From assembly GCA_963613915.1 (NCBI GenBank), contig CAVEBK010000003.1, positions 1,702 to 65,701 on the forward strand: 64,000 nucleotides of DNA. Reading direction: 5' to 3'. Origin of the DNA: an uncultured Collinsella sp. (GTDB lineage Bacteria; Spirochaetota; Spirochaetia; Treponematales; Treponemataceae). The notes beneath the pieces are model-generated. The model was not told the DNA's origin, did not search any database, and saw only the letters and a list, made by a program, of their open reading frames with translations. Below, piece after piece: positions 1,028 through 59,389 of this stretch. The position numbers were made by a program, and so were the translations under genes. Within the stretch, counting starts at the first letter, position 1, and each line of letters starts with the position of its first letter.

Positions 1028-1130
1028 TTTGTGGCAGGCCACAAAAACCGGGTCTTGCGTGGCTGCGGCGTCTTGCGCGCCTCCGGTGCCCTGCACCGCG
1101 CTGCGCGCGCCACTCCACCCCCTTGCGCAA
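1028..1130 (+). repeat. GC-rich structured intergenic element, copy R1 (orientation label arbitrary: + means hairpin H1-boxL-centre-boxR)
   Basis: Hairpin ttgtggc/gccacaa, then ccgggtcttgcgtggctgcggcg..gcgcctccggtgc..gcgcgccactcc. It shares boxes with the copies at 5272, 20972 and 59245. Confidence 0.75.
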
Positions 1131-1143
1131 AAAGGTAATTTTT

Positions 1144-1626
1144 ATGGACACAAAAGAACTTTACAGAGAAATATTAAACGACCATAACGTAAATCCGGCA
1201 CACAAAGAACAGATGCCTGACGCAACAATCCAGCTCCACGGAATAAACCCGAGCTGCGGCGACAATATTGTTCTTTTCTTAAAGACAAAAGACGGAATCA
1301 TTACAGACGGTTCGTACACTGGTTCCGGCTGTGCAATAAGCCAGGCAAGCGTAGACATGATGCTTGACCTTGTAATCGGTAAAAATCAGGAAGAAGCATT
1401 AAAACTTTACGACATCTTTACTTCAATGATCCACGGAACAGCAAAACCGCAAGACATTGAACAGTTAGACGAAGCTTCTTCGCTTGCAGATATTTCTCAT
1501 ATGCCGAGCCGTGTAAAATGTGCAGAACTCGGCTGGAGAACCCTGCACGAAATGCTTTCGGCACCTGTAAAAACAGAAGAACTGCACAAACAGGCTTTTC
1601 AAAACCACGAAAACTGTCCGGTTTAA
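1144..1626 (+). CDS. sufU: SUF-type NifU/IscU-like Fe-S cluster scaffold (SufU)
   Basis: Contains NPSCGDNI, GSGCAISQAS and a C-terminal RVKC Cys motif. I moved the start to ATG 1144, because the upstream TTG start lies inside repeat R1. Confidence 0.8.
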   Translation: MDTKELYREILNDHNVNPAHKEQMPDATIQLHGINPSCGDNIVLFLKTKDGIITDGSYTGSGCAISQASVDMMLDLVIGKNQEEALKLYDIFTSMIHGTAKPQDIEQLDEASSLADISHMPSRVKCAELGWRTLHEMLSAPVKTEELHKQAFQNHENCPV

Positions 1627-1759
1627 AAGGGCGCGGACGGTGCATTTTTAGTTTTTCTGTCCAAAACAGCCCGTGCTGGAGCAGCGCCGGAGGCGGTCCT
1701 GAAAGGACCGAGGGTTACCGAGCTGCGCAAGGACGGACGCGGGCAGAAAAATGTGCTCC

Positions 1760-2707
1760 TTAAATAACAGAAAACATATTTTTAATTTCTTCCTTCCATA
1801 ACGACACAAGTTCCGGAGGTTCGAGAGGACGGGCATTTGAACCGAATTTTAAAATATTCGACAGAACTTCTGTCAAATTTGCTGCAGGAAACGAAAGTTC
1901 AATAAAAGAAGAGCCGTTTGCCTGCCATTCGCGCACGCTTTGCTTTGGATGCCAGAGCTGACTCCGCACAATCTGCACTGCTTTTTTAGAAAATTCGATT
2001 TTTACTGTCTGTGTTTTTTCTCCAAGGAAAATTCCAAAACCGCTGTCGAGATAGGCGCTGACTTTTTTATTAAAATCAGGGCCGTGGTCTAAAAACTTTA
2101 TTTTAGTTGAAGTGAGTTTTTTTATGCGGGCAACGTTAAAAGTCCTGAGTTCGTTACGTTTGTGATCAAAGGCAATGACATACCAGTTTCCGCCGTAGTT
2201 TATTAAGTTGCACGGTTCAATTCTGCGCACTGATTCTTCGTTTTTGGAATTAACATAAGTTAATTCAAGGCAGTTTTTTTCTCTCAGGGCAGAACAGATT
2301 CCTGTAAAAAACTGCGGTTCAAGGCTTTCTGCTGCAGGAACCTGGTAGAGTATTTTGTCGCAGATTTCTAAATATTCTTTTGGAATCTGTGTTTTTAAGT
2401 TCTGCAGAAGTTCATTGCTTACGGCCGGAAAATAATTTGCATTTTTTAGCATTGACTGCATTACAAGATACGAAAGAATTAAATGCTGGTCTGCAAACTT
2501 TAACTGCTCAAAGCTTTTTGCATAAATGTAGGCGCGGCATTTTGCATTCCACTCGATCGGTGCTTCAAAACGGTCGCGCATGTATTCAATATCGCGCTTA
2601 ACCTGACGTTCGCTTACTTCAAATTCGTTTACGACATCTTTTAAGGTTAAACTGCCGGTATTACGAAGCCGGCGGTCAATAAATAAAATTCTTTCTGTCT
2701 GGCTCAT
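1760..2707 (-). CDS. HTH + WYL domain transcriptional regulator
   Basis: N-terminal DeoR-like HTH (LTLKDVVNEFEVSERQVKRDIEYM) and a central WYL-type motif (GGNWYVIAFDHKRNELRTFNVARI). Confidence 0.8.
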   Translation of the reverse strand: MSQTERILFIDRRLRNTGSLTLKDVVNEFEVSERQVKRDIEYMRDRFEAPIEWNAKCRAYIYAKSFEQLKFADQHLILSYLVMQSMLKNANYFPAVSNELLQNLKTQIPKEYLEICDKILYQVPAAESLEPQFFTGICSALREKNCLELTYVNSKNEESVRRIEPCNLINYGGNWYVIAFDHKRNELRTFNVARIKKLTSTKIKFLDHGPDFNKKVSAYLDSGFGIFLGEKTQTVKIEFSKKAVQIVRSQLWHPKQSVREWQANGSSFIELSFPAANLTEVLSNILKFGSNARPLEPPELVSLWKEEIKNMFSVI

Positions 2708-2822
2708 GCTTTTATTATAAGCAGAATTACGTTTTATAAAAACTGAATAAATTTTAAGAAAATCGCGACATCTGTTTTTCCTATTTTCTTAAAACTGCAA
2801 ATTCACTAAACTCTTGTGCATT

Positions 2823-3449
2823 ATGTTTAACGAAATCAAAAAATCAATTGTGTCAGGCATCCTTATTTCAATCGGCGGATGCGTTTACATGGCTAGTATT
2901 AGTGCCGGCTTAAGCTGGTTTGGTGCACTGCTTTTCTGCGGTGGTCTTTTTGCAATCTGCATCTACGGTTTTAACCTTTACACAGGAAAAGTCGGTTACA
3001 TTGCATACAATTTTAAAGACGGCAGATACTGGTTTCTTGTTGCTTTAATCTGCTTCTTTAACCTTCTTACAACTTTTTTAATCGGAATTGTCGTAGGAAA
3101 GTATTTTCCTGCTGTAAAAGAACCGGCTGTAAAAGCCTATGCTGCAAAACTTTCTGCTCCACTTGCAAAATCATTTATTTCTGCCCTTTTCTGCGGAATT
3201 TTAATGTTCCTTTCTGTTGATACCTGGAAAAAAGGTCATAAGCTCGGACTTTTTATCTATGTTCCTGTATTTATAATTGCAGGCTTTGACCACTCAATTG
3301 CAAATTCCTTCTACAACGGAGTTGCATTGAACGCCGACACTTTCACCCTCAAAAACTTTATTCTTGTAATGACAGTTGTTCTCGGCAACGGAATCGGCGG
3401 ATGGATTCTTCCGCTTTTAACAAAAAATCTCGACAGCAAAGAGTCATAA
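2823..3449 (+). CDS. formate/nitrite transporter (FNT) family membrane protein
   Basis: Polytopic membrane protein with the FNT-like signature GFDHSIANSF. ATG at 2823. Confidence 0.7.
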   Translation: MFNEIKKSIVSGILISIGGCVYMASISAGLSWFGALLFCGGLFAICIYGFNLYTGKVGYIAYNFKDGRYWFLVALICFFNLLTTFLIGIVVGKYFPAVKEPAVKAYAAKLSAPLAKSFISALFCGILMFLSVDTWKKGHKLGLFIYVPVFIIAGFDHSIANSFYNGVALNADTFTLKNFILVMTVVLGNGIGGWILPLLTKNLDSKES

Positions 3450-3464
3450 AGAAAAAGCCCTACT

Positions 3465-3491
3465 CCCGCCATCCGTGGCGGGCATTTTTTT
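3465..3491 (+). terminator. rho-independent terminator after the FNT gene
   Basis: cccgcc-atccgt-ggcggg stem-loop followed by caTTTTTTT. Confidence 0.7.
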
Positions 3492-3594
3492 AGAAAAATA
3501 AACTCGACATTCAGCAAAAGCCGGGAATCTGCCAGCAGGCCTGTCTGAAAAGACCTTTGCCCCTGCATTTTTTTTCATTCAATCCTGTTTTTAG

Positions 3595-3603
3595 TGATAT
3601 AAT
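3595..3603 (+). promoter_or_regulatory. extended -10 promoter element (TGaTATAAT) upstream of pgi
   Basis: tgatataat lies 64 nt upstream of the pgi ATG. The -35 is weak. Confidence 0.4.
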
Positions 3604-3666
3604 CTTTACAACACAATGACTGGTACACTCTGCCGGTCTTTATATTTTTTTTACTGGAGAACTTAT

Positions 3667-5253
3667 ATGTCTGTCTTATGGGAAAACTTAAACACACTTG
3701 AATCTTATAAAAAGCTTGAGTCGCTCAAAGGCGCCGTAAGCCTTGTAAACGAACTTGATGGAGAAAAAGGAGCAGAACGAGTAAAAAAATATTCTGTAAA
3801 AATGGGCGCCGGCCTCACTTACAACTACGCTGCAAAACAGGTAAACGAAAAAGTACTTAAAGTTCTTGAAGAACTTGCACAGGAAGCACAGCTTACTCAA
3901 AAGTTTGAAGAACTTTACAACGGAGCAGTCGTAAATACAGGAGAAAAACGTCTTGTCTTACATCATTTAACCCGCGGCCAGCTCGGCAAAGCAGTTATTG
4001 CAGACGGAACTGACAAGCGCGAATTCTACAAAAACGAGCAGAAAAGAATTGCAGACTTTGCAGAAAAAATCCATTCTGGAAAAATTGCTAACGCAAAAGG
4101 CGAAAAATTTTCAACAGTAGTACAGATTGGTATCGGAGGAAGCGATTTAGGTCCGCGCGCAATGTATCTTGCCCTCGAAAACTGGGCAAAAACAAACGGC
4201 ACATTCAAAATGGCAGCAAAATTCATTTCGAATGTAGATCCTGACGATGCAAGTGCAGTTTTAAAAGAAGTTGACCTTCCGCATTCACTTTTTATCCTTG
4301 TTTCAAAATCAGGAACGACCCTCGAAACCTTAACAAACGAAGCATTCGTAAAAGACGCACTCAAAAAGGCAGGATTAAATCCGGCAAACCACATGATTGC
4401 CGTAACTTCAGAAACTTCACCTTTAGCACACAATCCGGACTATCTCGAAGCCTTCTACATGGACGACTACATAGGCGGACGATATTCTTCAACTTCAGGA
4501 GTTGGCGGAGCTGTTCTTTCCCTTGCATTCGGCCCGAAAGTTTTTGCAGACTTTTTAGACGGAGCTGCACAGGAAGATAAACTTGCATGCAATCCTTCAA
4601 TCTACGAAAATCCTGCAATGCTCGACGCCTTAATCGGAATCTACGAGCGCAACGTTCAGGAATATCCGGCAACAGCAGTTCTTCCGTACAGCCAGGCACT
4701 GAGCCGTTTTCCTGCACACCTGCAGCAGCTCGACATGGAATCCAACGGAAAATCAGTAAACCGTTTCGGACAGAAAATCAATTATGTTACAGGTCCGGTA
4801 ATTTTTGGTGAACCGGGAACAAACGGCCAGCATTCTTTCTACCAGCTTTTACACCAGGGAACGACGATTGTTCCATTGCAGTTCATTGCATTTAAGAAAA
4901 ACCAGACAAAGGTTGACGTCGAAATAGAAGGTTCAGCAAGCCAGAAAAAACTCGATGCAAACGTAACCGCACAGATTATGGCGTTTGCCTGCGGAAAAGC
5001 AGACGAAGATCCAAATAAATCTTTTGCAGGAGAACGTCCTTCAAGCTTAATTTACGGCGAAGAACTTAATCCAGAAACACTCGGTGCCCTTCTTGCACAC
5101 TACGAAAATAAAGTTATGTTCCAGGGCTTTGTGTGGAACATCAACAGTTTTGACCAGGAAGGCGTACAGCTTGGAAAAAAACTTGCTAAAAAAGTCCTTG
5201 CCCACGACACGGCAGGAGCTTTAAAAGCATACGCAGACCTTTTAGAAATCTAA
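3667..5253 (+). CDS. pgi: glucose-6-phosphate isomerase
   Basis: Motifs GIGGSDLGP and SKSGTTLET. GGAGA Shine-Dalgarno before ATG 3667. Confidence 0.95.
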   Translation: MSVLWENLNTLESYKKLESLKGAVSLVNELDGEKGAERVKKYSVKMGAGLTYNYAAKQVNEKVLKVLEELAQEAQLTQKFEELYNGAVVNTGEKRLVLHHLTRGQLGKAVIADGTDKREFYKNEQKRIADFAEKIHSGKIANAKGEKFSTVVQIGIGGSDLGPRAMYLALENWAKTNGTFKMAAKFISNVDPDDASAVLKEVDLPHSLFILVSKSGTTLETLTNEAFVKDALKKAGLNPANHMIAVTSETSPLAHNPDYLEAFYMDDYIGGRYSSTSGVGGAVLSLAFGPKVFADFLDGAAQEDKLACNPSIYENPAMLDALIGIYERNVQEYPATAVLPYSQALSRFPAHLQQLDMESNGKSVNRFGQKINYVTGPVIFGEPGTNGQHSFYQLLHQGTTIVPLQFIAFKKNQTKVDVEIEGSASQKKLDANVTAQIMAFACGKADEDPNKSFAGERPSSLIYGEELNPETLGALLAHYENKVMFQGFVWNINSFDQEGVQLGKKLAKKVLAHDTAGALKAYADLLEI

Positions 5254-5271
5254 ATGAATAAAAAAGATTAA

Positions 5272-5385
5272 GAGGGCCTTCCCTTCCCTGCGGAAGGTCG
5301 CGCTTTTCATGGCTGCGGCTTTCGCCTCCGGTATTTTTGCCTTGCAAAAACACCCGCTTCGCGGCCATTACAATCGCTAAGGCAA
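5272..5385 (+). repeat. GC-rich structured intergenic element, copy R2
   Basis: Hairpin ccttcc/ggaagg, box tcgcgcttttcatggctgcggc, central gcctccggt plus tttttgc/gcaaaaa hairpin, box cttcgcggccattacaatcgc. Confidence 0.75.
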
Positions 5386-5392
5386 AACCAAA

Positions 5393-5431
5393 CATAAAAA
5401 AAAGGCTTCTGAAAACTTTCAGAAGCCTTTT
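5393..5431. terminator. bidirectional stem-loop terminator (strong for minus-strand tRNA-Leu, weaker for pgi)
   Basis: aaggcttctga..tcagaagcctt stem of about 11 bp. An A-run lies on the left (a T-run on the minus strand) and TTTT on the right. Confidence 0.65.
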
Positions 5432-5442
5432 GCATGCCTTAA

Positions 5443-5530
5443 TGCCGAGAACCAGAATCGAACTGGCACGGCCGTTTGAATTGCCGAGGGATTTTAAGTC
5501 CCTTGTGTCTACCTATTCCACCATCTCGGC
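5443..5530 (-). tRNA. tRNA-Leu (anticodon UAA)
   Basis: Reverse complement GCCGAGATGGTGGAATAGGTAGACACAAGGGACTTAAAATCCCT..GGTTCGATTCTGGTTCTCGGCA folds as a cloverleaf with a long variable arm. The anticodon loop is CTTAAAA. Confidence 0.9.
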
Positions 5531-5633
5531 ATTGTTGAATGAATATTTCAAACAACTCGAGTATATTAACAAAATTAAGGATTTTTTTCAAGTCTCTTGA
5601 AAATCAATTTTCATAATATTAAAATTGCCGACT

Positions 5634-6506
5634 ATGTTCAGCGATACACATTTTCATTTTCATCATCTTACAGAAGAACGCGCACTTAACGGTTCTGAAA
5701 TTTTACAGAAACTCTGCGAACGCGACACCTTTTTTGCCCTTGATATCGGAACACGCGCAGACGACCTTTTGCCGCGTCAAAATGCAATCAAAGAAGAAAT
5801 TTCAAAACTGCCGCAAGGCTTACAGAAACAGGCAGACAACTTTATTTTTTACGCTGCCGGAATCTGGCCCGACGTAGACGAAATAAAAGACAGAGACAAC
5901 GCCATAAAAACATTAAAAGCAAATATCCAGGAATTCTCTAAAACTTCTGATAAAAAGCTGGTTGCAATCGGAGAATGCGGAATTGACCACCACTGGAACC
6001 CTTCTGGAGCAGACGGCCGCGACGAAAACGACTTTAATGCAGACATTTTTAAAGGCGAAAAAGAACTTTTCTGCATGCAGCTTGAATACGCAAAAAGCTT
6101 AAATCTGCCGGTAATCGTGCATTCAAGAGATGCATTCGAAGACAGCGTAGACTACATAAAAGAAACAGGCTATAACAACGGAATAATTCACTGTTTCAGC
6201 TACGGAATTGAAGAAGCAAAAACTTTTCTGGATCTAGGCTGGTATCTGGCATTTGGCGGAGCAACAACTTACACAAAAAAGTCAAAAATGCAGGCAATGA
6301 CAGAACTCCTGCGCTACGTACCGGAAGACAGGCTTCTTTTAGAAACCGATTCTCCATATCTTGCCCCAGTTCCGTTCCGTGGACAGACAAACACCCCCGT
6401 TCTGATTGAATATGTTTACAATTTTATAGCACAGGCGCGCAATACAAGCCCTCAGGAACTAAGCGACCTTGTAGACACTAATATAAAAACACTTTTTAAG
6501 CTTTAA
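5634..6506 (+). CDS. TatD family metal-dependent hydrolase
   Basis: N-terminal DTHFHFHH, then GECGIDHH and HSRDA motifs. Confidence 0.85.
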   Translation: MFSDTHFHFHHLTEERALNGSEILQKLCERDTFFALDIGTRADDLLPRQNAIKEEISKLPQGLQKQADNFIFYAAGIWPDVDEIKDRDNAIKTLKANIQEFSKTSDKKLVAIGECGIDHHWNPSGADGRDENDFNADIFKGEKELFCMQLEYAKSLNLPVIVHSRDAFEDSVDYIKETGYNNGIIHCFSYGIEEAKTFLDLGWYLAFGGATTYTKKSKMQAMTELLRYVPEDRLLLETDSPYLAPVPFRGQTNTPVLIEYVYNFIAQARNTSPQELSDLVDTNIKTLFKL

Positions 6507-6513
6507 AGGCGTT

Positions 6514-7062: not shown

Positions 7063-7195
7063 CCAGTTTTCGACTTAAAACCTGGGCAATTCTCTGCACG
7101 GCAAAGTCTAAATATTCTGAATCATGAATTTTTCTTCTTAATTCCAGTACACGATCAGAATATTGATTGTCTAACGATTTTGAAATAGCAGTCAT
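7013..7195 (-). CDS. small hypothetical protein (60 aa)
   Basis: ORF in operon context between the YraN gene and the 6514 gene. It overlaps both neighbours slightly. No family recognised. Confidence 0.3.
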   Translation of the reverse strand: MTAISKSLDNQYSDRVLELRRKIHDSEYLDFAVQRIAQVLSRKLVEENERPYNGRRNEPR

Positions 7196-7876: not shown

Positions 7877-7915
7877 CTTCTAATTTTCTCCCAAAAATTT
7901 GAGTTTGAGTTTGTT

Positions 7916-12406: not shown

Positions 12407-12612
12407 GTGCGACCTCCTGTCGCGACAAGAAATGCAGTTGCATTTCTTGCGGCCACTCGTCTTTGTGCGCCCTCCCTGGCGCAGTACGGCGTCAGCTGCG
12501 TGAGCGGGTGTAAAGGTGCGCAAAGCGCAATGTTTGCGACAGCAAACATCGGAGGCGCGTCAGACGCCGCAGCCTTGGAACACGCGACGGCTGAAAGCCG
12601 GCACGCCCATAA
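12407..12612 (-). repeat. GC-rich structured intergenic element, composite copy R6
   Basis: Starts right after the argR stop. Hairpins gcgac-ctcct-gtcgc, caagaaatgca/tgcatttcttg and tgcgcc-ctccct-ggcgca, then cggaggcgcgtcagacgccgcagcc (reverse of the box seen at 21001-21030). Confidence 0.75.
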
Positions 12613-14321: not shown

Positions 14322-14532
14322 GCGCGAAGAATGCATGCTTTTTTGTCTGTGCCTTATAGCCCCGATTGTAACGGCGCCGTAAGGCGTTGTACGACATCCT
14401 GTCGTGCAACAAATTGCAAAGCAATTTGTTCGGGTCTATCGTCTTTAGTGCCGTCCGTGGCACCATTTTACCGTGTAAAAACAAAGTACAATGAAGCGGT
14501 AGCGCAACCGTGAAAAGCGGGCGCGGGCTGTA
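14322..14532 (-). repeat. GC-rich structured intergenic element, copy R7 (between convergent gene ends)
   Basis: cgattgtaacggcgccgtaagg (reverse boxR), hairpins acgac-atcct-gtcgt, caacaaattgc/gcaatttgttg and gtgcc-gtccgt-ggcac, then caaccgtgaaaagcggg (reverse boxL). Confidence 0.75.
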
Positions 14533-14553
14533 AATACGCTCCAGAAAAAAAAG

Positions 14554-20882: not shown

Positions 20883-20971
20883 TAAAAAACAGATTCTAAA
20901 AAAACACTTACGTTAAATTTTGTCTGGAATATAAAAGTAAAGTTCAAATTTTATGATTTTTATGGGCGTAT

Positions 20972-21071
20972 CTTTGCACAGGTGCAAAGACCACGCTTTT
21001 CGTGGCTGCGGCGTCAACGCGCCTCCGGTGCTGCGCACCCGCTTACGCGGCCACTACAATCGTTTACGCAG
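20972..21071 (+). repeat. GC-rich structured intergenic element, copy R3, inserted between flgC and fliE
   Basis: Hairpin tttgcac/gtgcaaa, accacgcttttcgtggctgcggc, gcgcctccggtgc, cttacgcggccactacaatcg. Confidence 0.8.
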
Positions 21072-22054: not shown

Positions 22055-22197
22055 ATGTCGAATTTCACTAAAACACTTCAAATAGCCTCTCGTCGAGAAC
22101 CTGCCAGCAAGCCGCATGCTTCGCTTCGCTCAGAATGCGTTTGTGTCAGAACCTCTCCTACGGCTATTTGACATTCTTCATAAAACAAATTCGACAT
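22055..22197 (+). repeat. MITE-like palindromic element, copy A1 (143 bp)
   Basis: Termini ATGTCGAATTT..AAATTCGACAT. Arms AAATAGCCTCTCGTCGAGAACCTGCCAGCAAGCCGCA..TGCGTTTGTGTCAGAACCTCTCCTACGGCTATTT. Confidence 0.8.
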
Positions 22198-23674: not shown

Positions 23675-23881
23675 ATGGAATTTTAATTTCCTGAAAAAAA
23701 ATCAAACAGCCTCTCGCAGGGAACCTTGATAAAGAAAATGCCTTCCTGTCATTTTCTTTATCGCAAAAACTTTTTAAGTTTTTGCCCGTCTGTATCCGCC
23801 ATCCGTGGCGGTCATTACTGCAGTTTTTGGAACAGAACCCCGGCTACGGCTATTTGACAATTTTTATAAACTAAATTCCAT
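23675..23881 (+). repeat. MITE-like element, expanded copy A4, inside the ABC transporter operon
   Basis: Termini ATGGAATTT..AAATTCCAT and arms aaacagcctctcgc..ccggctacggctatttgaca. The core carries three hairpins: a 13-bp stem gataaagaaaatg/cattttctttatc, gcaaaaactt/aagtttttgc, and ccgcc-atccgt-ggcgg. Confidence 0.75.
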
Positions 23882-24747: not shown

Positions 24748-24852
24748 TACGCGTTAGGGGGTGGAGCACCGGCAACGCCGTTCGCGTAAGCGAATGAAGC
24801 GGATAGCGCAAGTGCGGAACACCCGACGGCAGTTTACTGCCGGAACGCCCGT
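24748..24852 (-). repeat. GC-rich structured intergenic element, copy R12
   Basis: The reverse complement reads cgggcgttccggcag-taaa-ctgccgtcgggtgttccgc..ccgcttcattcgc, matching the copies at 33583 and 46866. Confidence 0.7.
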
Positions 24853-29191: not shown

Positions 29192-29338
29192 GAATTTCAA
29201 TAACCCGCATAAAAAAAACAGCCTCTCGCCAAGAACCTTCTCCAATCCGCACGGTTGCGACAAGCGCAAAGTGCGTTTGGAGAGAGAACCTTGGCTACGG
29301 CTGTTTTTATATTTTTTTGTAAAATAAAATCAAAGTTC
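29192..29338 (+). repeat. MITE-like element, diverged copy A3
   Basis: aaacagcctctcgccaagaacct..ccgcacggttgcgacaagcgcaaagtgcg..gagaaccttggctacggctgttt. Its apical loop is the same as in copy A2. Confidence 0.7.
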
Positions 29339-32605: not shown

Positions 32606-32770
32606 GCCGGATTGCGTGCGACCTCCTGTCGCGCCAAGAAATGCATTTGCATTTCTTGCGGTCAACTGTCTTTATGCGCCATCCGTGGAGTCCTTTAGAA
32701 CATTCTGATTGTTTCTCCACGCAAATGCCCCGTAAACAAAGCACAGCGCCTTACGGACAAATGCCGTCCA
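32606..32770 (-). repeat. GC-rich structured intergenic element, copy R8
   Basis: gcgac-ctcct-gtcgc, caagaaatgca/tgcatttcttg, gcgccatccgtggag, and cgtggag..ctccacg. It is near-identical to the start of copy R6. Confidence 0.75.
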
Positions 32771-33582: not shown

Positions 33583-33692
33583 TCGGGCGTTCCGGCACTT
33601 TGTGCCGTCGGGCTATCCAGGGTTCCGCGCCTTACGCGCTGCATGGGGCTGTTCAGCCCCACACCTTCGGTGCCCTTACTATCCCTAACGCA
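33583..33692 (+). repeat. GC-rich structured intergenic element, copy R11
   Basis: cggcac-tttg-tgccg, tcgggctatccagggttccgc, ggggct-gttc-agcccc, cttcggtgcccttactatccc. Confidence 0.75.
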
Positions 33693-33716
33693 TAAGTCCA
33701 AAGTTCTGCATAAAAT

Positions 33717-33933: not shown

Positions 33934-34078
33934 ACGTCGAACACCTCCTAAAAAATATTCAAATAGCCTCCCGTCGAGAACCTGCCAGCAAGCCGCACGG
34001 TTGCGACAAGCGCAAGGTGCGTTTGTGTCAGAACCTCTCCTACGGCTATTTGACATTTTCCGTAACAAAGTTCGACAT
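33934..34078 (+). repeat. MITE-like palindromic element, copy A2 (145 bp)
   Basis: By eye the arms are near-identical to copy A1. The apical 20 nt differ (cggttgcgacaagcgcaagg). Confidence 0.8.
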
Positions 34079-36171: not shown

Positions 36172-36342
36172 TTTTGTTTCCTGATAAAAAATAAAAAATT
36201 TCAGACGCGATTATATCAAAATCAAAAATCACTAACAATAAGAACTCGAATGTCAGCTTACATAGTTTTACGCTGGTTTCGACTTGGCTCAACCGGCGTA
36301 AAAGTACGCCTGCCACCCGCCCACCAATTCAATTTCTTTTTA

Positions 36343-37245: not shown

Positions 37246-37318
37246 GGCTCCATCGAATATCGGTTCAGTTCATCGCCCTCTCAAGGCGGAGAGACGGGTT
37301 CGACTCCCGTTGGAGCTA
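37246..37318 (+). tRNA. tRNA-Glu (anticodon CUC)
   Basis: Acceptor GGCTCCA/TGGAGCT, D-arm GAAT..GTTC, anticodon arm TCGCC-CTCTCAA-GGCGG, T-arm ACGGG-TTCGACT-CCCGT. The anticodon arm resembles the canonical tRNA-Glu sequence CGCCCTTTCACGGCG. Confidence 0.8.
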
Positions 37319-37411
37319 AAAAACAAAAAATCGAGACAGAAAGACATCCATTGGGGTGTCTTTTTTTTATGCGAGACAGAAAAACGGAGTCGAACCGCGG
37401 AGCGAGCGCGC
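37299..37411 (+). repeat. 113-bp direct repeat, copy 1 (starts in the T-loop of tRNA-Glu)
   Basis: Identical by eye to 37500..37612. The offset is 201 bp. Confidence 0.9.
37343..37368 (+). terminator. rho-independent terminator after tRNA-Glu (duplicated at 37544..37569)
   Basis: gacatcc-attg-gggtgtc followed by T8. Confidence 0.7.
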
Positions 37412-37499
37412 CGGCGAGGCGAAAAGGTGCCAAGGATGGCACCGCCAGCGAGCGTAGACGGCCCGGTGGGAGCAGACACGACGTCTGCGACCAGAGGGC

Positions 37500-37612
37500 T
37501 TCGACTCCCGTTGGAGCTAAAAAACAAAAAATCGAGACAGAAAGACATCCATTGGGGTGTCTTTTTTTTATGCGAGACAGAAAAACGGAGTCGAACCGCG
37601 GAGCGAGCGCGC
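37500..37612 (+). repeat. 113-bp direct repeat, copy 2 (tRNA-Glu 3' fragment plus terminator plus downstream sequence)
   Basis: ttcgactcccgttggagcta..gagcgagcgcgc repeated exactly. No matching 5' acceptor strand lies upstream, so this is a tRNA fragment and not a gene. Confidence 0.9.
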
Positions 37613-41270: not shown

Positions 41271-41440
41271 AGGGGAAAGCCTTCCCCTGCGCGCAAAAAG
41301 AACAGTTTCCACAACCCAAACTTTTCTGCAATATTGCGCCAAGGACGGCGCGTAAGTTTTAGTTGACCGCAAGAAACAACGTTTCTTGACACAACACGAA
41401 GTTGTGACCCTTCGCCTAGGGGCTTACGCCCCTAAAACCC
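41271..41440 (+). repeat. GC-rich structured intergenic element, copy R9 (between convergent mutS2 and thrA ends)
   Basis: aggggaa-agcc-ttcccct, gcgcc-aaggac-ggcgc, caagaaac/gtttcttg, cacaac-acgaa-gttgtg, aggggc-ttac-gcccct. Confidence 0.7.
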
Positions 41441-43941: not shown

Positions 43942-44070
43942 ACAAACCTCAAACAGCGGAAAAGAAAGTTCGCTTAAAAAATAATTTCCGTAAAGTATAA
44001 TGAAATAAAAAATCAGTTACAACAAAGAGTTTTTTACTGGTTGAATGCCAGGCTTCAATAAAAATAAATC

Positions 44071-44135
44071 AAATATTCTCTCGTCGAGCCACTGCCAGCA
44101 AGCCGCACGCGACAGGATGTCGCATCGTTTGATAA
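44071..44135 (+). repeat. MITE-like element, truncated copy A5 (left arm only) fused to a gcgac-aggat-gtcgc hairpin
   Basis: aaatattctctcgtcgagccactgccagcaagccgcac followed by gcgacaggatgtcgc. Confidence 0.6.
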
Positions 44136-46839: not shown

Positions 46840-46865
46840 TTTTTCTCCGTAATCTTTATTTTTGG

Positions 46866-46990
46866 GGCACATCCTGCCCTTCCGGGCAGGACCGGGCTAT
46901 CCGGGGTTCCGCTGTCCGCTTCATTCTGCTGCCATTCTGTCAGCAGAACGCTTCGCGCCCCTGCTATCCCATTGTGCGTTTAGCACAAGG
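46866..46990 (+). repeat. GC-rich structured intergenic element, copy R10
   Basis: cctgccc-ttcc-gggcagg, accgggctatccggggttccgc, ttctgctg-ccattctgt-cagcagaa, cttcgcgcccctgctatccc. Confidence 0.75.
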
Positions 46991-51993: not shown

Positions 51994-52020
51994 CGTTCAC
52001 CCTTTTTAAGGAAAGCAAAA

Positions 52021-53421: not shown

Positions 53422-53431
53422 AGGAAACATT

Positions 53432-54532: not shown

Positions 54533-54585
54533 TAAACTACATTCCTGTAATTTATCAGTCGTAAGAATTAAAACATCAATCTGTA

Positions 54586-54745
54586 TACGCGCAGCCGTGC
54601 GCTCATTTAATGCGCAAGGGATTGCAGTGGCGCCGTAGGCGTTCAAAAACGGGGGTTCGACAAGCTCAACCGCCGTTTTTGAATGGAGCGCGCAAGTCGC
54701 GGAACCACGAAAAGCCCGGTCTGCCACTTGTGGCAGATGTGCCCA
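54586..54745 (-). repeat. GC-rich structured intergenic element, copy R5 (inverted partner of R4)
   Basis: aagggattgcagtggcgccgtaggcg, ttcaaaaacgg..ccgtttttgaa, gcgcgcaagtcgcggaaccacgaaaagcccggtctgccacttgtggcagatg. The last roughly 52 bp equal the reverse complement of 59251-59302. Confidence 0.85.
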
Positions 54746-54749
54746 AATT

Positions 54750-55445
54750 CTACTTTAAAAGATATTCAACTGTTGTAACTACACGGACATTCTTTTTGTC
54801 TTCAAGTCCCTGAGCTGCATTGTCAATCGAAAAAAGTCCCTGTGTTGCTTTCTTGATTTTTCCAACCTTACTGTTTGAATCATGTGCAAACTGCTCAGCT
54901 GCTGTGCGGGCATTCTGTGTTGCCTGGGCAATCATTTCAGGTTTAATGTCGTTTAATTTTGTAAAATCATAGGAAATAAGACCGTCATATTCGCGGCTTA
55001 CTGTAACTCCGCTGGAAACAAGATCAAAAGAATCTGCATATGCAGACTTTACAGCCGGCACTTTTGAAGAACGAACAAGAATCGTCTGCCGTCCAATGTA
55101 AGTGTAGCGGATATTGTTCTGATCCATGTAAGTGTTCAGCGAGTTATCAGTAATTGCAGCCGGCAGAACCGAATAATCTTCTTCCGACAGACCATGGTCG
55201 CTAAGATATTTTTTTACGATTTCTGTCTTGGAAATAATTGTTTTCTGTAAATCCGTAAGTGAATTGTTTCCGACAGAAAAAATAAGGTTCCATACTGCAA
55301 GGTCTGCATCAACTTCTTTTTCAGCAAGTCCACGAACGCTTACGCTTCGCTCCGGCGTAATAATGTGTGCAAGTCCAAAAGAAATAATCACTGATGCAAT
55401 GATTACTGACAAACTAAACAGAATTCCGTTTTTTGATTTTTCCAT
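54750..55445 (-). CDS. SIMPL (DUF541) domain protein
   Basis: N-terminal TM segment, then the ..RSVSVRGLAEKEVDADLA.. motif typical of SIMPL. Confidence 0.75.
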   Translation of the reverse strand: MEKSKNGILFSLSVIIASVIISFGLAHIITPERSVSVRGLAEKEVDADLAVWNLIFSVGNNSLTDLQKTIISKTEIVKKYLSDHGLSEEDYSVLPAAITDNSLNTYMDQNNIRYTYIGRQTILVRSSKVPAVKSAYADSFDLVSSGVTVSREYDGLISYDFTKLNDIKPEMIAQATQNARTAAEQFAHDSNSKVGKIKKATQGLFSIDNAAQGLEDKKNVRVVTTVEYLLK

Positions 55446-55496
55446 AAAATCCTCCTTATAAAACTCCGCGTTAGCGGTGAGCCATGGATGGCGAAA

Positions 55497-55565
55497 ATCA
55501 CAGTTTGTGAAAGCATCGCTTGAACAAACTGTGATGATAAAAATTGCACGGATGCAATTTTTATC
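55497..55565 (-). other. two abutting perfect hairpins (11-bp and 13-bp stems); possible terminator or RNA element after the TIGR03905 gene
   Basis: atcacagtttg..caaactgtgat and gataaaaattgca-cgga-tgcaatttttatc. Only a 4-T run follows on the minus strand. Confidence 0.4.
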
Positions 55566-55583
55566 ATGCCTCCTATAAAAAAA

Positions 55584-55829
55584 TTAAGCCTGCATTACAG
55601 CCTTTGCCAGCTGGTCTGCACAGCTTGTATTTTTTGTTCCGCATAAATTTCCGGCAAGCTTTGCAGAAATTTCCTGAGCACTCATTCCTTCGCACAGTTT
55701 AGAAATTGCCTTTAAATTTCCGTTACAGCCGCCTTCAAAACAGATATTAAAGATTCTGCCATTTTCATCTTTTTCAAAATTTATTTTTTTAGCGCAGGTT
55801 CCGCTTGTTACATAAGATTTTTTTTCCAT
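55584..55829 (-). CDS. TIGR03905-like TSCPD domain protein
   Basis: 81 aa: GTCAKKINFE..FEGGCNGNLKAISKL..GTKNTSCADQLA. Confidence 0.75.
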   Translation of the reverse strand: MEKKSYVTSGTCAKKINFEKDENGRIFNICFEGGCNGNLKAISKLCEGMSAQEISAKLAGNLCGTKNTSCADQLAKAVMQA

Positions 55830-55879
55830 AAGTGTCCCCGATAAATTATCTTAACGATTTTTTTTAACTTTTTAAAGTT

Positions 55880-56611
55880 TTACAGCTTACGTCCCAAAAC
55901 CTTTAACAGATCAGGAACTATTTCTTCTCCGCGGAGTTTCCTGGCTTCTTCATACACTTTTAAAATATCCTGTGGCAATGTTTCTTTTTCGCCTTTTAAT
56001 GTCTGATACGGAGAATCTGTTTCAAAAAGAATTCTCTCTCTTTTAAGGCGTTTTACACACTCAATTGCAGATTTTTTTCCGTTAATTACAGGCTTTCCAA
56101 ACGAAAAATACGCATTCACGCCTTTCTGTAACATTGAGGCAGCTTCTAGAAAAGTGCCCGCCCAGGAATGAAAAATAACCGCCGGAACTTTTTTGAGTAT
56201 TTTTATGTCGCGAAAAAACAGATGAGTACATTTTCTGCCATGAACAACAAGCGGTTTTTCGTATTTTACTGCACATTCAAGCTGCAAAGACCAGGCTTTT
56301 TCCTGATTTTCAATATTCGCTTTAAAATCGTCAGTAAAAAGGTCAAAACCACATTCACCGATTGCGTCAATTTTATTGTTTTCTAAAAGTTCAATTAAAA
56401 AGTCTTTCTGGCTAAGGTCGGGATTTTGAGGATGAATTCCAAAGGTAGTAAAAAAATGAAGGTTTGAGCCCGCAGGAATTGAAGAAATTATCTTCTGCTG
56501 CTGTAAATATTCTTCTTTTGAAAGCACACAATCAAGGGCACAGTATTCTGTATTTTGCGGAAACTGAGGGAACTTAGAATGAACAAGGTGCAGGTGACAA
56601 TCAAAAATCAT
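55880..56611 (-). CDS. TatD family hydrolase (second paralog)
   Basis: FDCHLHL, GECGFD, HSW motifs. Start taken at Met6. Confidence 0.8.
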   Translation of the reverse strand: MIFDCHLHLVHSKFPQFPQNTEYCALDCVLSKEEYLQQQKIISSIPAGSNLHFFTTFGIHPQNPDLSQKDFLIELLENNKIDAIGECGFDLFTDDFKANIENQEKAWSLQLECAVKYEKPLVVHGRKCTHLFFRDIKILKKVPAVIFHSWAGTFLEAASMLQKGVNAYFSFGKPVINGKKSAIECVKRLKRERILFETDSPYQTLKGEKETLPQDILKVYEEARKLRGEEIVPDLLKVLGRKL

Positions 56612-56725
56612 AATAAGCCTTAACAAAGTAAAAAATAAAAAACGCTTAACCTTTTTTTTATTATACCGAAAATTTTAATGTACGGAACATTTAATTTTGC
56701 GGTAACTCCGCGGGAGGAAAAACAA

Positions 56726-56938
56726 ATGGGCACATACACTTTAAAAAGCATTGGAAAATCAACAGATTACATGACTGTAGTCCGCGAAATGGACGACGGC
56801 TACATTGTACGCATTGTACGCGACGAAGACGGCTACGAAGACGTTACAACTGATTTTATAAGCAAGGCACTGTTCGACTCATGCATCAGAACAGGCTACC
56901 TTACAAAGGTTGCAGCAGCTGTAGAAGCTTCTGCTTAA
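56726..56938 (+). CDS. small hypothetical protein (70 aa)
   Basis: GGGAGGAAAAACAA precedes ATG 56726. No family recognised. Confidence 0.5.
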   Translation: MGTYTLKSIGKSTDYMTVVREMDDGYIVRIVRDEDGYEDVTTDFISKALFDSCIRTGYLTKVAAAVEASA

Positions 56939-56942
56939 TTTA

Positions 56943-57941
56943 TTACAGATTATTCTCGGCTAATTCCAGGGCTGCCTTAAAACGTGTCTCGACAGACATT
57001 TCCTGAGGCAGCCAGTTTATTTTTATTCCTTTTTTTTCCATTCCACGGAACCACGTTTCCTGTCTTTTTGCAAACTGACCGATTGCAAGATTTAAAAGTT
57101 CAAACAGTTTTTCTTTAGATTCAATTCTGCCTTCAAGATATTCACTTACAAAACGATACTCAAGCCCAAGGCTTTCAAGACGCTGCCAGGCTGCTCCGTT
57201 TTTATGCAGACCTTCAACTTCTTCAATCAAACCTTCGTTTAAGCGGGAGCGCAGACGATCTGCAATCCGCTGTCGGACTAAAGAACGTTCAAGAGTTGTG
57301 CACATTACAAGCGGCTTTACGACCGGCCGCTCAGAAAGAATTTTTTCTTTTAAGACCTTATATTCATCAGATTTATTAAAACGGTTCAGTAAAATTGCCT
57401 TTACGATTCTTTCTTTGTCACCAAATTCGCTTGTATTATGAAGTTTTTGTTTTTCACTGATTAAAATTGACTTTAATTCTTCATACGAGAGTTCAAGAAG
57501 TTTCTGTTTTTCTTCTTCATTTTCGCTAAAAGGAATCATGTCATAGTTATGCAGGATTGAATCCACATACATTCCAGTTCCTCCGACAACAATCGGAAGA
57601 ACACTGCGTTTTAAGCAGTCCGCAAAAGAATTATAAAAATCACGCGTAAAATCAAAAAGACTGTATTCATAGGAAAGGTCAGTAACGTCAATAATGTGGT
57701 AGGGAACATTGTAAACGCCGTCAGTAATTTTTGTTTTTAAGCCTGGATTTAAAGAAAGGGCAGAAGATTCTTCCATTTTAAAATCTGCCAGATCTTTCCC
57801 GCTTCCAATATCAAGTCCGCGGTAAACCTGGCGGCTGTCCGCACTTAAAATTTCACCGTTTAAGCTTGCTGCAAGACGCACGCCGATTGCTGTTTTTCCG
57901 ACAGCGGTCGGTCCCATCAAAAAAATACAGTTATAAGACAT
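56943..57941 (-). CDS. miaA: tRNA dimethylallyltransferase
   Basis: P-loop GPTAVGKT, ..SADSRQVYRGLDIGS.., VGGTGMY. Confidence 0.9.
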   Translation of the reverse strand: MSYNCIFLMGPTAVGKTAIGVRLAASLNGEILSADSRQVYRGLDIGSGKDLADFKMEESSALSLNPGLKTKITDGVYNVPYHIIDVTDLSYEYSLFDFTRDFYNSFADCLKRSVLPIVVGGTGMYVDSILHNYDMIPFSENEEEKQKLLELSYEELKSILISEKQKLHNTSEFGDKERIVKAILLNRFNKSDEYKVLKEKILSERPVVKPLVMCTTLERSLVRQRIADRLRSRLNEGLIEEVEGLHKNGAAWQRLESLGLEYRFVSEYLEGRIESKEKLFELLNLAIGQFAKRQETWFRGMEKKGIKINWLPQEMSVETRFKAALELAENNL

Positions 57942-57973
57942 TAAATTTCCTTAAAACGCGTTCAGGCACAATT

Positions 57974-59218
57974 CTACAGAACACGGCAGACAGCGCATTT
58001 TAAATATTCAGACTTTGGATAACCTGCAAGAACAGGATGGTCAGGGCCTGCCCCATATTTTGCAAGAATCTGTACACGTTTTTTAGAATCTTCGGCAGCC
58101 TTCATAATCATTCCGTAAAAATGTTCAGAATCAAAAAAGTATGAACATGAACAGGTTACTAAAATTCCATTTTCCGTTAAAAGCCGCATTGCACGAAGGT
58201 TTATTTCTTTGTAACCGCCATAAGCCTTCTGAATGTTTTTTGCATTTTTTGTAAAAGCAGGAGGATCAAGAATAATCAAATCGAATTTTTCGCCCTTTGC
58301 TTCGTAATCTTTTAAAGCATCAAAAATATCAGCACAAACAGTCTTCATTTTTGTTCCGGCCTTATTAAGTTCAATATTTCTGTTTATCATTTCAACAGCT
58401 TCAGGACTTAAATCTATGCTGGTAATTTCTTTTGCTCCGCCCTTAAAACAGTTAAGCCCGAATGAACCTGTGTGACTGCACGCATCAAGAACTTTTTTGC
58501 CTGCTGCAAGTTTTGAAACCTGTTTTCTGTTGAATTTCTGGTCAAGAAAGTAACCGGTCTTCTGTCCGTGAGCAATATCAACTTCTAAAAGAACATCATT
58601 TTCGCGGATCGTTATTTTTTCTTCCCTGACTTCGCCAAGCCAGCATGCTTTTTCTTCTAAGCCTTCTTTTTCGCGCACGGCTGCGTCATCACGTTCAAAA
58701 ATTCCATAAGGACGGATAATCTTTTTTAATGCTTCAAGAATTTCTTTCCTGAAAACTTCTGCACTCAGCGACAAAAACTGAACGACAAGATAAATATTCT
58801 TTTTTACATCAAAATAACGTTCAACAATAAGCCCCGGAATTAAATCTGCTTCTGCATAAACGAGGCGGTAACTGTCTTTCATGTCATAATAGAGCTTTCT
58901 TAAATCGTAGGCATCCTGAATTTTCTTTGTGTAATAGCCCTGAACATCTTTCATAATCTGGTCGGCATGGTCTTTTCCGATAATGCGTACTGTAATCTTT
59001 GATTTTCTATTGATTACGCCTGTTCCCAGAAATCCGCCGGCATTTGCAAAGACTTCTACAACTTCACCGTCTTTTACCATGCATTCTTCAAGGCTAGTCT
59101 GTTTTACTCCGCTTTTTGAATCAAACTTTACATGGTCAATTTCATTATCAAAAACCCATGGGAATCCCTGGGCAACTTCAATTTCTTCTCCTGGTTTTAA
59201 AAACACTCTTGCAAACAT
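57974..59218 (-). CDS. class I SAM-dependent rRNA methyltransferase (RlmI-like, PUA plus MTase)
   Basis: N-terminal PUA-like domain, VLDACSHTGSFG, ILDPPAF. Confidence 0.8.
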   Translation of the reverse strand: MFARVFLKPGEEIEVAQGFPWVFDNEIDHVKFDSKSGVKQTSLEECMVKDGEVVEVFANAGGFLGTGVINRKSKITVRIIGKDHADQIMKDVQGYYTKKIQDAYDLRKLYYDMKDSYRLVYAEADLIPGLIVERYFDVKKNIYLVVQFLSLSAEVFRKEILEALKKIIRPYGIFERDDAAVREKEGLEEKACWLGEVREEKITIRENDVLLEVDIAHGQKTGYFLDQKFNRKQVSKLAAGKKVLDACSHTGSFGLNCFKGGAKEITSIDLSPEAVEMINRNIELNKAGTKMKTVCADIFDALKDYEAKGEKFDLIILDPPAFTKNAKNIQKAYGGYKEINLRAMRLLTENGILVTCSCSYFFDSEHFYGMIMKAAEDSKKRVQILAKYGAGPDHPVLAGYPKSEYLKCAVCRVL

Positions 59219-59244
59219 ATTTTTTTTCCTTTTTTTTCTCTTCT

Positions 59245-59389
59245 GGGCGCATCTGCCACAAGTGGCAGACCGGGCTTTTCGTGGTTCCGCGACTTGCGCG
59301 CTTCATTCAAAAACGGGGTTTCACCGCCGTTTTTGAACGCCTTCGGCGCCACTACAATCCCTTGCGCGAACTGCACCTGGCCGCGCGCA
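59245..59389 (+). repeat. GC-rich structured intergenic element, copy R4 (inverted partner of R5)
   Basis: ctgccac-aa-gtggcag, accgggcttttcgtggttccgcgacttgcgcgcttcattc, ttcaaaaacgg..ccgtttttgaa, cttcggcgccactacaatccc. Confidence 0.85.

Follow-up and report, generated by a model that had tools for sequence, protein, structure and literature searches.

What are the GC-rich, hairpin-forming sequences that recur in the intergenic spacers of a 64-kb stretch of spirochaete DNA, and why do they keep their fold? The stretch, called the window below, comes from contig CAVEBK010000003.1 of a metagenome assembly placed in the Treponemataceae. An earlier note on it had listed 12 such elements as one modular family with covarying stems, likened them in general terms to REP/BIME-type repeats (repetitive extragenic palindromes and bacterial interspersed mosaic elements), and offered roles ranging from mRNA stabiliser to transposase substrate. 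The follow-up analysis showed that the main element, family 1, is a 100-140 nt interspersed repeat of host-associated Treponema (gut, rumen and oral species). Its copies fold into a branched structure in which pairing is held by strictly Watson-Crick exchanges, and they are gained and lost at orthologous spacers. On balance the element is best read as a non-autonomous mobile element recognised by its fold, probably as single-stranded DNA.

The repeat family in the window

The window has a G+C content of 41% and a housekeeping gene content that includes phosphoglucose isomerase (PGI), EF-G, MutS2, Lon, ThrA, ArgH, ArgR, the SUF system, a flagellar operon, ribosomal protein L19/TrmD/RimM and four tRNAs. 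Against this background the 12 intervals listed earlier are all intergenic and indeed GC-rich, at 0.50-0.70 compared with 0.41 for the whole window. The box-L pattern GCTWTYCRKGGYTSCG occurs seven times with at most one mismatch where 0.04 occurrences are expected, so the repeats are not chance palindromes.

The window copies were oriented and aligned, relatives were gathered by nhmmer, and 76 full-length copies from multiple genomes were aligned with MAFFT (alignment A1). The covariance model R1, built from these 76 copies, was then used to search the window with filters off. It found 11 family 1 copies, or one per 5.8 kb, all single and spaced 0.5-13 kb apart (Table 1). Together with the box-L count, the model confirms that the copies are homologous, and they are modular and present in both orientations as the earlier note had described. 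Ten of its 12 elements follow the proposed plan of a terminal hairpin H1, box L, central hairpins and box R; the other two, 32606-32770 and 41271-41440, do not. The picture of a single family gives way to at least three module families and a fourth, MITE-like family (miniature inverted-repeat transposable element) with terminal inverted repeats. Hairpin cassettes are common to the repeat families and this MITE-like family, a sharing that had been noticed before. The interval 12407-12612, taken earlier as one element, is a composite whose left part belongs to family 2 and the rest to family 1.

A branched fold kept by Watson-Crick exchanges

The element is closed by P1, a 5-bp stem that joins both of its ends and has at least eight sequence variants, including GCGTT/AACGC, GCGCA/TGCGC, GCGTA/TACGC, GCACA/TGTGC, GCCTT/AAGGC, GCGTG/CACGC and GCGTC/GACGC. 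Inside P1 lies the 5' hairpin H1, with a median stem of 6 bp. The second stem, P2 (GGG.TT/AA.CCC), contains one pair that alternates between T-A (93 copies) and A-T (31 copies), and a conserved internal loop separates it from P3 (GGGG/CCCC; pair counts G-C/A-U 99/28 and G-C/U-A/C-G 83/26/13). P3 leads to a junction with three hairpins, hp2, hp3 and hp4. The sequence of H1 is variable, as had been claimed, with 95 different 5' arms among 129 copies, and together with hp4 (29 distinct arms) it is the most variable part of the element. The length of hp3 varies and it serves as a slot for nested modules; the copies show that H1 and hp3 are permissive slots where small hairpin modules nest. The unpaired segments GGTTCCGC, CGCTCCATT, AAC and TACAAT are conserved at 60% to more than 90%. 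The consensus of 130 copies is branched and spans 108 positions, with a 5' end of GGGCG followed by variable bases.

The fold was recovered from an alignment that had not been fitted to any structure: RNAalifold on the MAFFT alignment gave 25 pairs, 21 of them with compensatory changes. Among 130 copies aligned to the model, 97.3% of cells pair, compared with 74.7% when columns are shuffled and about 46% when they are slid by 1-3 columns. Both sides have changed in 24 of the 25 pairs (598 cells), one-sided changes account for less than 1% of cells, and none of 500 shuffles reaches the observed values. The 130-copy alignment is itself fitted to R1, and the independent MAFFT result agrees with it. 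The proposed pairing of box L with box R, with its compensatory changes, is thus borne out; it corresponds to P2 and P3 and is extended by P1 and hp2-hp4. The suggestion that structure rather than sequence is kept likewise stands.

Within the window genome the copies are only 45-69% identical, yet nearly all of them pair, a combination that none of the explanations considered below accounts for in full. It needs either a highly diverse active pool that keeps replacing the copies, or in-place selection on each copy; the sample, only about 2% of the genome's copies, is compatible with both.

Folded RNA or folded DNA

Functional RNAs usually have far more G:U than A:C. The core pairs of family 1 have 32 G:T against 28 A:C, a count that leaves out one column pair which is T:G in 118 of 130 copies and is perhaps not a real pair. 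The corresponding numbers are 0 against 11 in H1 and 7 against 12 in hp3, summing to 7 against 23. Orientation relative to the flanking genes, taken from heuristic open reading frame (ORF) calls, is equally indifferent: both neighbours run with the element at 27 copies and against it at 25, and 18 copies lie in convergent and 16 in divergent spacers. In the window itself copies are sense in the nifU 5' untranslated region (UTR) and the PGI 3' UTR, and antisense in the flgC-fliE spacer and upstream of several genes.

The position profile of the copies has no fixed -10/-35 upstream and no T-tract downstream, and a scan of two copies, near 54.6 and 59.3 kb, for promoters and terminators found nothing. 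By eye the T-rich 5' flank looks -10-like, but a promoter there was rejected when the profile proved to be a diffuse T-rich tract. The reverse strand of family 1 was also considered for GGA motifs of the CsrA type, an idea that was dropped because one of the two candidate GGA triplets varies (CTCCA or CTTCA).

Folded with DNA parameters, two window copies take the branched shape on either strand, with z of -3.2 to -4.4; for the 33583 copy the values for the two strands are -3.7 and -4.4. For the 24749 copy the minimum-free-energy folds of RNA and DNA both equal the consensus fold. The DNA fold of one high-scoring copy from another genome is energetically not outstanding.

Covariation is present, but neither the G:U tolerance nor the constant orientation to transcription of a generic functional RNA was found. 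As explanations of the kept fold, the RNA roles put forward earlier (small RNA, mRNA 3'-end stabiliser, attenuator) find little favour: G:T does not exceed A:C, orientation is random with respect to genes, no promoter- or terminator-like site was found at the two copies scanned, and there is no fixed -10/-35 upstream. These results speak against RNA as the source of the pairing constraint and point to folded DNA.

Gain and loss at orthologous spacers

Eighty metagenome loci carrying PGI orthologues (72-84% identity) were searched with R1; fetched loci of other genomes searched in this way are given L numbers. The PGI-anchored relatives have about 10 copies in about 700 kb, compared with 11 in the 64 kb of the window, so that the density of family 1 ranges from one per ~6 kb in the window to about one per 70 kb in relatives. 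The 5272 copy is inserted between the PGI stop codon and the PGI terminator hairpin. In L117, L119, L123 and L124 this copy is absent, the stop codon being followed directly by the conserved terminator and tRNA-Leu (filled/empty alignment A3). In L117 and L119 no 1017 copy separates nifU from the gene upstream of it, and these same two loci have a copy downstream of tRNA-Leu that is absent in the window. A copy lies 13 nt past the PGI stop in the opposite orientation in L145 and L146, and about 280 nt past PGI in L104; the spacer is empty, at 9-56 nt, in L157, L140, L137 and L172. Copies have thus entered the spacer downstream of PGI independently, at positions that differ among relatives and in either orientation. 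The comparisons show that copies are gained and lost at orthologous spacers.

Some sites are more stable. A site just upstream of the start codon of the phosphoglycerate mutase gene (iPGM) is filled in 4-5 species, always in one orientation and with differing hp2 and hp3; therefore some copies persist through speciation. Orthologous copies (L145 and L146; L053 and L089) have uncorrected single mismatches. Around the 54610 copy synteny is not conserved in the fetched relatives, hence no empty site was available.

Insertion signature

No target-site duplication was detected: the longest shared flank word is 3.85, compared with 3.70 in controls of shuffled pairs. In a survey of 152 copies, direct flank repeats with at least 8 matches were found at 27 copies against 18.3 ± 4.9, with no constant offset. 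Repeats of 8-9 bp set back from the core in two filled/empty pairs (ATAAAAAAG, ATTTTTAT) had been a candidate duplication and were set aside, as this survey shows no significant excess. The flanks of copies have no complementarity beyond P1.

Over about 15 nt the 5' flank is rich in T, with T at 0.68 at position -1 and about 0.45-0.55 over the tract, and contains no fixed word; the 3' flank returns to background in about 4 nt. The T-run is present in the empty site of one filled/empty pair (L126 vs L125) and is therefore target sequence, not element. The sense strand of the element lies preferentially on the locally C-rich strand, in 70 cases against 33 among 103 informative copies (p 3e-4), and when thresholds are made stricter and masking wider the ratio remains between 2:1 and 3:1. 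A search for an autonomous partner copy was also made; the half-matches were all completed within 300 nt, so that no gene-sized insert was found and the candidate was discarded.

Distribution across genomes

A 21-nt degenerate box-L pattern was searched in a one-genome-per-species collection, with assemblies counted by accession prefix. It was found in at least 114 stretches from at least ~75 species-level assemblies, and absent from the viral contigs of IMG/VR. Among the matches listed, the labels are nearly all Treponema, Treponemataceae or Spirochaetaceae, and the isolates include T. ruminis, T. parvum, T. pectinovorum, T. bryantii, T. porcinum and Treponema sp. C6A8 and JC4. With R1, 130 matches (E 1e-4 to 1e-22) were obtained in the window and L002-L100, and more in L101-L195.

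A few bins labelled otherwise (Parabacteroides distasonis, Lachnospiraceae, Prevotella and others) also carry the repeat. Two of these, assemblies CAVJSA and CAVKVK ('Lachnospiraceae bacterium' and 'Parabacteroides distasonis'; loci L064/L068 and L032/L071), have many copies. Non-Treponema labels look like binning or labelling errors, because these two bins share flanking DNA that is 85-96% identical. The window itself is therefore assigned to a gut or rumen Treponema; its exact MutS2 protein turned up in one Logan assembly only. The repeat could thus mark mis-binned Treponema contigs in metagenome bins.

The literature searched, which did not extend to subscription journals, contains no description of family 1; only the TD-1/TD-2 motifs and a remark on MITE numbers in Spirochaetes, made in a census, are related to it. 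Rfam 15 has no match to family 1. Rfam scans at the gathering threshold, of the whole window to E 10, and permissively of single copies gave only chance-level matches, such as TD-2 at 19 bits and Twister-sister at 16 bits.

Features of the window and neighbouring elements

Table 1. Repeat elements of the window, with family 1 copies first. Copies are named in the text by their first coordinate.
Element	Coordinates	Strand	Evidence	Setting and remarks
Family 1 copy	1017-1130	+	R1 52.9 bits, E 1.3e-10; neighbours by Pfam	Between a -10-like TATAAT and the ATG of a NifU-like gene, sense
Family 1 copy, degenerate	1664-1761	-	R1 22.8 bits, E 0.0021	Convergent spacer, NifU-like gene / WYL-domain gene; absent from the earlier note's list
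Family 1 copy	5272-5385	+	R1 75.1 bits; filled/empty alignment A3	Downstream of PGI (see text)
Family 1 copy	12496-12610	-	R1 56.3 bits; Pfam for neighbours	argR / PRK/uridine-kinase-like gene spacer, antisense to both genes
Family 1 copy	14356-14544	-	R1 38 bits	Convergent spacer, PRK-like gene / fliJ; without clear P1/H1; P2 variant CCCG...CGGG
Family 1 copy	20962-21071	+	R1 64.5 bits; Pfam FliE, Flg_bb_rod	flgC-fliE spacer of core flagellar operon, antisense to operon
Family 1 copy	24749-24852	-	R1 79.3 bits	argH / solute-binding protein gene spacer, sense
Family 1 copy	33583-33693	+	R1 89.7 bits (top score of window)	DUF554 gene / tRNA-Leu(gag) spacer, antisense to both
Family 1 copy	46863-46979	+	R1 71 bits	Phosphorylase / chromate-transporter gene spacer, antisense; optional 3' tail hairpin TTGTGC/GCACAA up to ~46990
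Family 1 copy	54610-54746	-	R1 82.1 bits	Convergent spacer, sufD / SIMPL gene
Family 1 copy	59243-59369	+	R1 86.7 bits; Pfam for neighbours	lon / RlmI-like methyltransferase gene spacer, antisense; 3' tail hairpin up to ~59389
Family 2 module	12407-12489	+	nhmmer E 8.6e-23; direct repeat D9	Third hairpin GCGCC-CTCCCT-GGCGC; abuts 3' end of the 12496 family 1 copy
Family 2 module	14389-14470		nhmmer	Nested in hp3 of the 14356 family 1 copy
Family 2 module	32616-32699	+	nhmmer E 2.7e-24; no R1 match	Core of 32606-32770
Family 2 module, diverged	41328-41403	-	nhmmer E 2e-06; no R1 match	Inside 41271-41440
Mini-hairpin, solo	36283-36312	+	Sequence, family survey	GCTGGTT-TCGACTTGGCTCA-ACCGGC
Mini-hairpin	54656-54669			In hp3 of the 54610 family 1 copy
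Mini-hairpin	29256-29269
Mini-hairpin	34002-34015
MITE-like element	22080-22177
MITE-like element	23702-23865
MITE-like element	29217-29310
MITE-like element	33961-34059
MITE-like element	44066-44112

The 20962 copy lies inside the flagellar operon and therefore must be transcribed within the polycistronic mRNA. The 54610 and 59243 copies are 93% identical, inverted and 4.5 kb apart, and are linked by the inverted repeats I1 (95%) and I2 (93%). Their main difference is the loop of hp3, which has the full mini-hairpin loop TTCGACAAGCTCAA in the former and a shortened form in the latter. Some copies have a 3' tail in which the 5' strand of P1 is repeated; the 3' strand of P1 can pair with this repeat instead, in a hairpin that excludes P1. 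An example is CCTAACGC-GATA-GCGTTAGG. Such tails were seen at L064 (~40-62), L047 (~5216-5260), L071, L041 and L052 and in the window at 46972-46990, 59363-59389 and 54586-54612, and in one genome the tail is followed by a second hairpin, CGTGCGC/GCGCACG.

Family 2 consists of three hairpins, GCGAC-CTCCT-GTCGC, CAAGAAATGCA/TGCATTTCTTG and GCGCC-ATCCGT-GGCGC. Besides its four window copies there are more in other genomes, and its stems covary too. In the third family, a short hairpin, the 12-nt loop TCGACARGCTCA is conserved while the stems covary (variants GGTGGTT/AACCACC, GGTGATT/AATCACC and GGCCC/GGGAC). These mini-hairpins occur solo in spacers, or nested in hp3 or H1 of family 1 and in the MITE-like family, and were found in many other loci (L167, L036, L049, L106, L137, L143 and others). 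The fragment 36270-36330, listed earlier as related to the main family, is a solo copy of this mini-hairpin and not of family 1. The fourth, MITE-like family is bounded by true terminal inverted repeats of 10 bp, TCAAATAGCC...GGCTATTTGA, and has in its centre family 2 cassettes (CCGCCATCCGTGGCGG; GCGAC-AGGAT-GTCGC) and a mini-hairpin (GGTTGCGACAAGCGCAA).

A second fragment that had been listed as related, 37400-37499, is part of a 201-nt tandem duplication adjoining tRNA-Glu. The duplication occupies 37292-37612 (120 nt repeated, 98%) and repeats the 3' end of tRNA-Glu(ctc) together with the downstream terminator; the GC-rich part, 37400-37492, lies within one duplication unit and has hairpins of its own (GGTGCC-AAGGAT-GGCACC). 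At 55478-55569 on the + strand there is a TD-2-like RNA sequence that scores 31.4 bits with Rfam RF03162, below the gathering threshold of 48.7 (local E 0.0076). It forms two hairpins with the loops AUGGAU and ACGGAU, and judging from these letters the GGA-in-loop motifs may resemble CsrA binding sites. A 125-nt copy, 91% identical, occurs in another context upstream of PGI (L117:4735-4858). The spacer downstream of PGI in L162 (6640-6730) has another GC-rich, hairpin-rich element (GGGGGCGTTGCGGGGGCTCTCCCCCGC...) that R1 does not recognise; further families of such hairpin-rich elements thus exist in related Treponema.

Comparison with known systems

The general likeness to REP/BIME-type interspersed repeats drawn by the earlier note is reasonable. 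REP, REPIN and BIME sequences and family 1 are all high-copy, GC-rich, intergenic and hairpin-forming, occur in both orientations and in mosaics with other motifs, make no target duplication and persist for long in a lineage. An enzyme whose gene lies elsewhere, a RAYT Y1 transposase, is believed to recognise REPs in their folded, single-stranded form (PMC3116915, PMC2817692, PMC3479197). The likeness does not extend to the defining features. A REP is a single imperfect palindrome of 20-40 nt with a conserved GTAG- or CGTC-type head, often arranged in inverted doublets (PMC3733652), whereas family 1 has neither a short palindrome with a GTAG-type head nor inverted doublets. It is instead a 100-140-nt multi-helix junction with conserved internal loops, hairpins of free sequence and no tetranucleotide head. 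Unlike REPINs its copies are single, the sole inverted pair being 4.5 kb apart, and its mosaics are nested or adjacent modules (12407-12610; hp3) rather than the REPs of a BIME, which alternate in orientation and are parted by defined linker motifs. In REP/RAYT systems the genome has a single-copy RAYT gene, which the repeats usually flank; no RAYT-type domain was found in the window ORFs, and the host is a spirochaete.

Elements of the IS200/IS605 type and their ORF-less derivatives, which transpose as single strands ('peel and paste'), have no terminal inverted repeats, make no target duplication, are recognised by structure, insert next to a short AT-rich target on one side and are oriented with the replication strand, with a bias towards the lagging-strand template. 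Family 1 shares with them the lack of long terminal inverted repeats and of target duplication; its T-rich 5' flank and its 2:1 GC-skew bias are the observations that correspond to their target and orientation. The ends of IS200/IS605 elements are two similar, sequence-specific subterminal hairpins bound by TnpA, with a defined target of 4-5 nt. In family 1, by contrast, the end-proximal hairpins vary, the conserved part is central, the target is a mere T-rich tract and the bias is modest.

Integron attC sites are also defined by the fold of one strand, with paired boxes round a variable centre and diverse copies that fold alike, and integrons occur in few genera outside the proteobacteria, Treponema being one of them. 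This fold-defined diversity is shared by family 1. attC sites have conserved R boxes (R''/R', RYYYAAC/GTTRRRY, with AAC/GTT at the crossover) and stand in cassette arrays next to intI. Family 1 has no fixed AAC/GTT triplet, since the inner two pairs of P1 can be UA, AU, CG or GC; its copies are dispersed singly among housekeeping genes and its fold is branched.

The nearest precedent for multi-copy covarying motifs in Treponema is given by the TD motifs. TD-1 and TD-2 of Treponema denticola (Rfam clan CL00124) have 28 and 36 copies with covarying, variable stems and are found in Treponema only (PMC1950547). Sequence and architecture differ from those of family 1, whose best TD-2 score is 19.3 bits (the 59243 copy) against a gathering threshold of 48.7, and whole-window Rfam scans gave no TD-1 or TD-2 match to any family 1 or family 2 copy. 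A census of MITEs (PMC11602168) includes no description that matches family 1. The element has neither terminal inverted repeats of at least ~10 bp nor a fixed-length target duplication, which would mark it as a MITE. ERIC, Correia, BOX and RUP-type elements are structured, MITE-like intergenic repeats of 100-200 nt. Once co-transcribed they fold, and the stability or processing of the mRNA can change as a result; those of the BOX type are modular, and those of the Correia type duplicate a TA. Unlike family 1 these repeats have retained either long terminal inverted repeats or box sequences that are conserved, and to our knowledge none has been described as a covarying multi-branch junction with stems of free sequence. 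Family 1 thus matches no catalogued repeat family among those compared.

Proposed mechanism and alternatives

A structure-specific enzyme, encoded at some other place in the genome, would recognise the branched fold on single-stranded or extruded DNA, in parallel with the action of HUH/Y1 transposases on IS200/IS605 ends and REPs, or of integron integrases (IntI) on attC. Single-stranded DNA exposed at replication forks is the most plausible substrate because of the skew bias and the lack of target duplication. The enzyme may cut and paste the element, or copy it, into T-rich intergenic DNA with a preference tied to the replication strand. Inserted copies would then be passively co-transcribed in 5' UTRs, 3' UTRs and operon spacers, where they could alter mRNA structure as a side effect and not as the cause of fold conservation. 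That family 1 is a mobile, non-autonomous DNA element is probable; a specific single-strand, HUH-like route is put forward tentatively, as one possibility.

A number of points weigh against the proposal. The 54 larger ORFs of the window have no transposase, HUH, recombinase or reverse-transcriptase domain, the genes recurring beside copies are housekeeping only (ABC ATPases, phosphoglycerate mutase, response regulators and similar), and tblastn with an IS200 TnpA sequence gave no match in the 1.6 Mb of loci fetched, a negative of little weight. Among the window copies alone orientation against GC skew is 6 to 5. The ends of the element are approximate, the filled and empty species being only ~80% identical, and the end-proximal hairpins H1 and hp4 are free in sequence, unlike those of IS200/IS605. 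Pairing in copies as diverged as those of the window genome is not expected from the neutral decay of dead copies, and the copies retained upstream of iPGM could mean a host function. Of the roles that the earlier note had offered, the transposase substrate fits best, and the enzyme it calls for was not found.

Strong covariation together with conserved unpaired nucleotides in loops and junction is the classic signature of a functional RNA. Many copies lie in transcribed spacers (nifU 5' UTR, PGI 3' UTR, flgC-fliE), the phosphoglycerate mutase site is kept in several species, and TD-1 and TD-2 give a precedent for multi-copy RNA motifs in Treponema (PMC1950547). A multi-copy structured RNA, whether a cis-acting mRNA element (stabiliser, attenuator, processing site) or a set of independent small RNAs, is nevertheless quite unlikely. 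G:U does not exceed A:C on either strand, orientation to genes is random (27 vs 25) with convergent and divergent spacers both used, and there is no fixed -10/-35 upstream or T-tract downstream; the copies are patchy at orthologous sites, their density differs about 10-fold between relatives, and Rfam has no matching family. Pairing that is Watson-Crick only and equivalent on both strands would also suit host-recruited DNA sites, in which folded or cruciform DNA binds a chromosomal protein (nucleoid protein, topoisomerase or recombinase) and is held by host selection, on the model of E. coli BIMEs, which bind gyrase and IHF. The folding of highly diverged copies of one genome, the retention of some orthologous sites and the density of about one copy per 6 kb over a housekeeping region are consistent with such sites. 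This explanation is unlikely, given close species without copies at the same spacers and with about 10-fold lower density, the same spacer hit at different positions and orientations, and the lack of a known candidate binding protein. Five short helices round a junction would, in the author's judgement, also make an unusual protein-binding DNA site.

The pairing might instead be kept by the mechanics of mutation, through quasi-palindrome template switching or gene conversion between copies, and the covariation would then be without functional meaning. Quasi-palindrome correction is a known bacterial process; double changes in family 1 are nearly always Watson-Crick to Watson-Crick, one-sided changes are rare (<1% of cells), and the hp3 cassettes that differ between orthologous copies suggest inter-copy exchange. 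The idea is very unlikely in view of P1, P2 and P3, which pair over 60-130 nt across hairpins and are poor substrates for local template switching, and of the unpaired junction and loop bases, whose conservation above 90% over ~75 species needs selection. The orthologous pairs L145/L146 and L053/L089, moreover, keep their uncorrected mismatches. Highly improbable is an ordinary MITE, mobilised by a DDE transposase through its terminal inverted repeats, since the terminal complementarity of family 1 is only the 5-bp P1 with freely varying sequence, its conservation is internal (P2/P3, junction) rather than at the ends, and a target-site duplication was not seen. Its size, intergenic position, AT-rich targets and both orientations do fit, the census of conserved MITEs gives high counts in Spirochaetes including Treponema (PMC11602168), and the MITE-like family with true terminal inverted repeats coexists in the window.

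Mobility by recognition of the fold may have a further, more speculative form. Family 1 could represent a new class of structure-specified mobile DNA, in which the ends are joined by a closing stem and a folded multi-helix junction of single-stranded DNA is recognised by an enzyme that has so far been associated with no repeat family, the candidates being a spirochaete HUH/Y1 enzyme, a tyrosine recombinase or attC-like use outside integrons. The free-sequence hairpins would be docking slots for mini-elements. This broader claim is doubtful as it stands; if true, it would mean a layered ecosystem of hairpin parasites in Treponema genomes.

Significance

On the proposed reading, inclusion of the family 1 covariance model in annotation would keep these spacers from being mistaken for novel riboswitches or small RNAs. 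If family 1 is a mobile element read by its fold, Treponema genomes hold a large, old and diverse population of small elements whose sole heritable constant is a branched DNA fold. With hundreds of copies per genome in about 75 or more species, it would provide a data set on how structure-specific DNA enzymes read their substrates, and it would hint at a mobilising enzyme in spirochaetes still to be found. For the bacteria themselves, copies in the 5' UTRs of nifU and phosphoglycerate mutase, in the PGI 3' UTR and between flgC and fliE likely shape differences in mRNA structure and expression among close gut and rumen Treponema.

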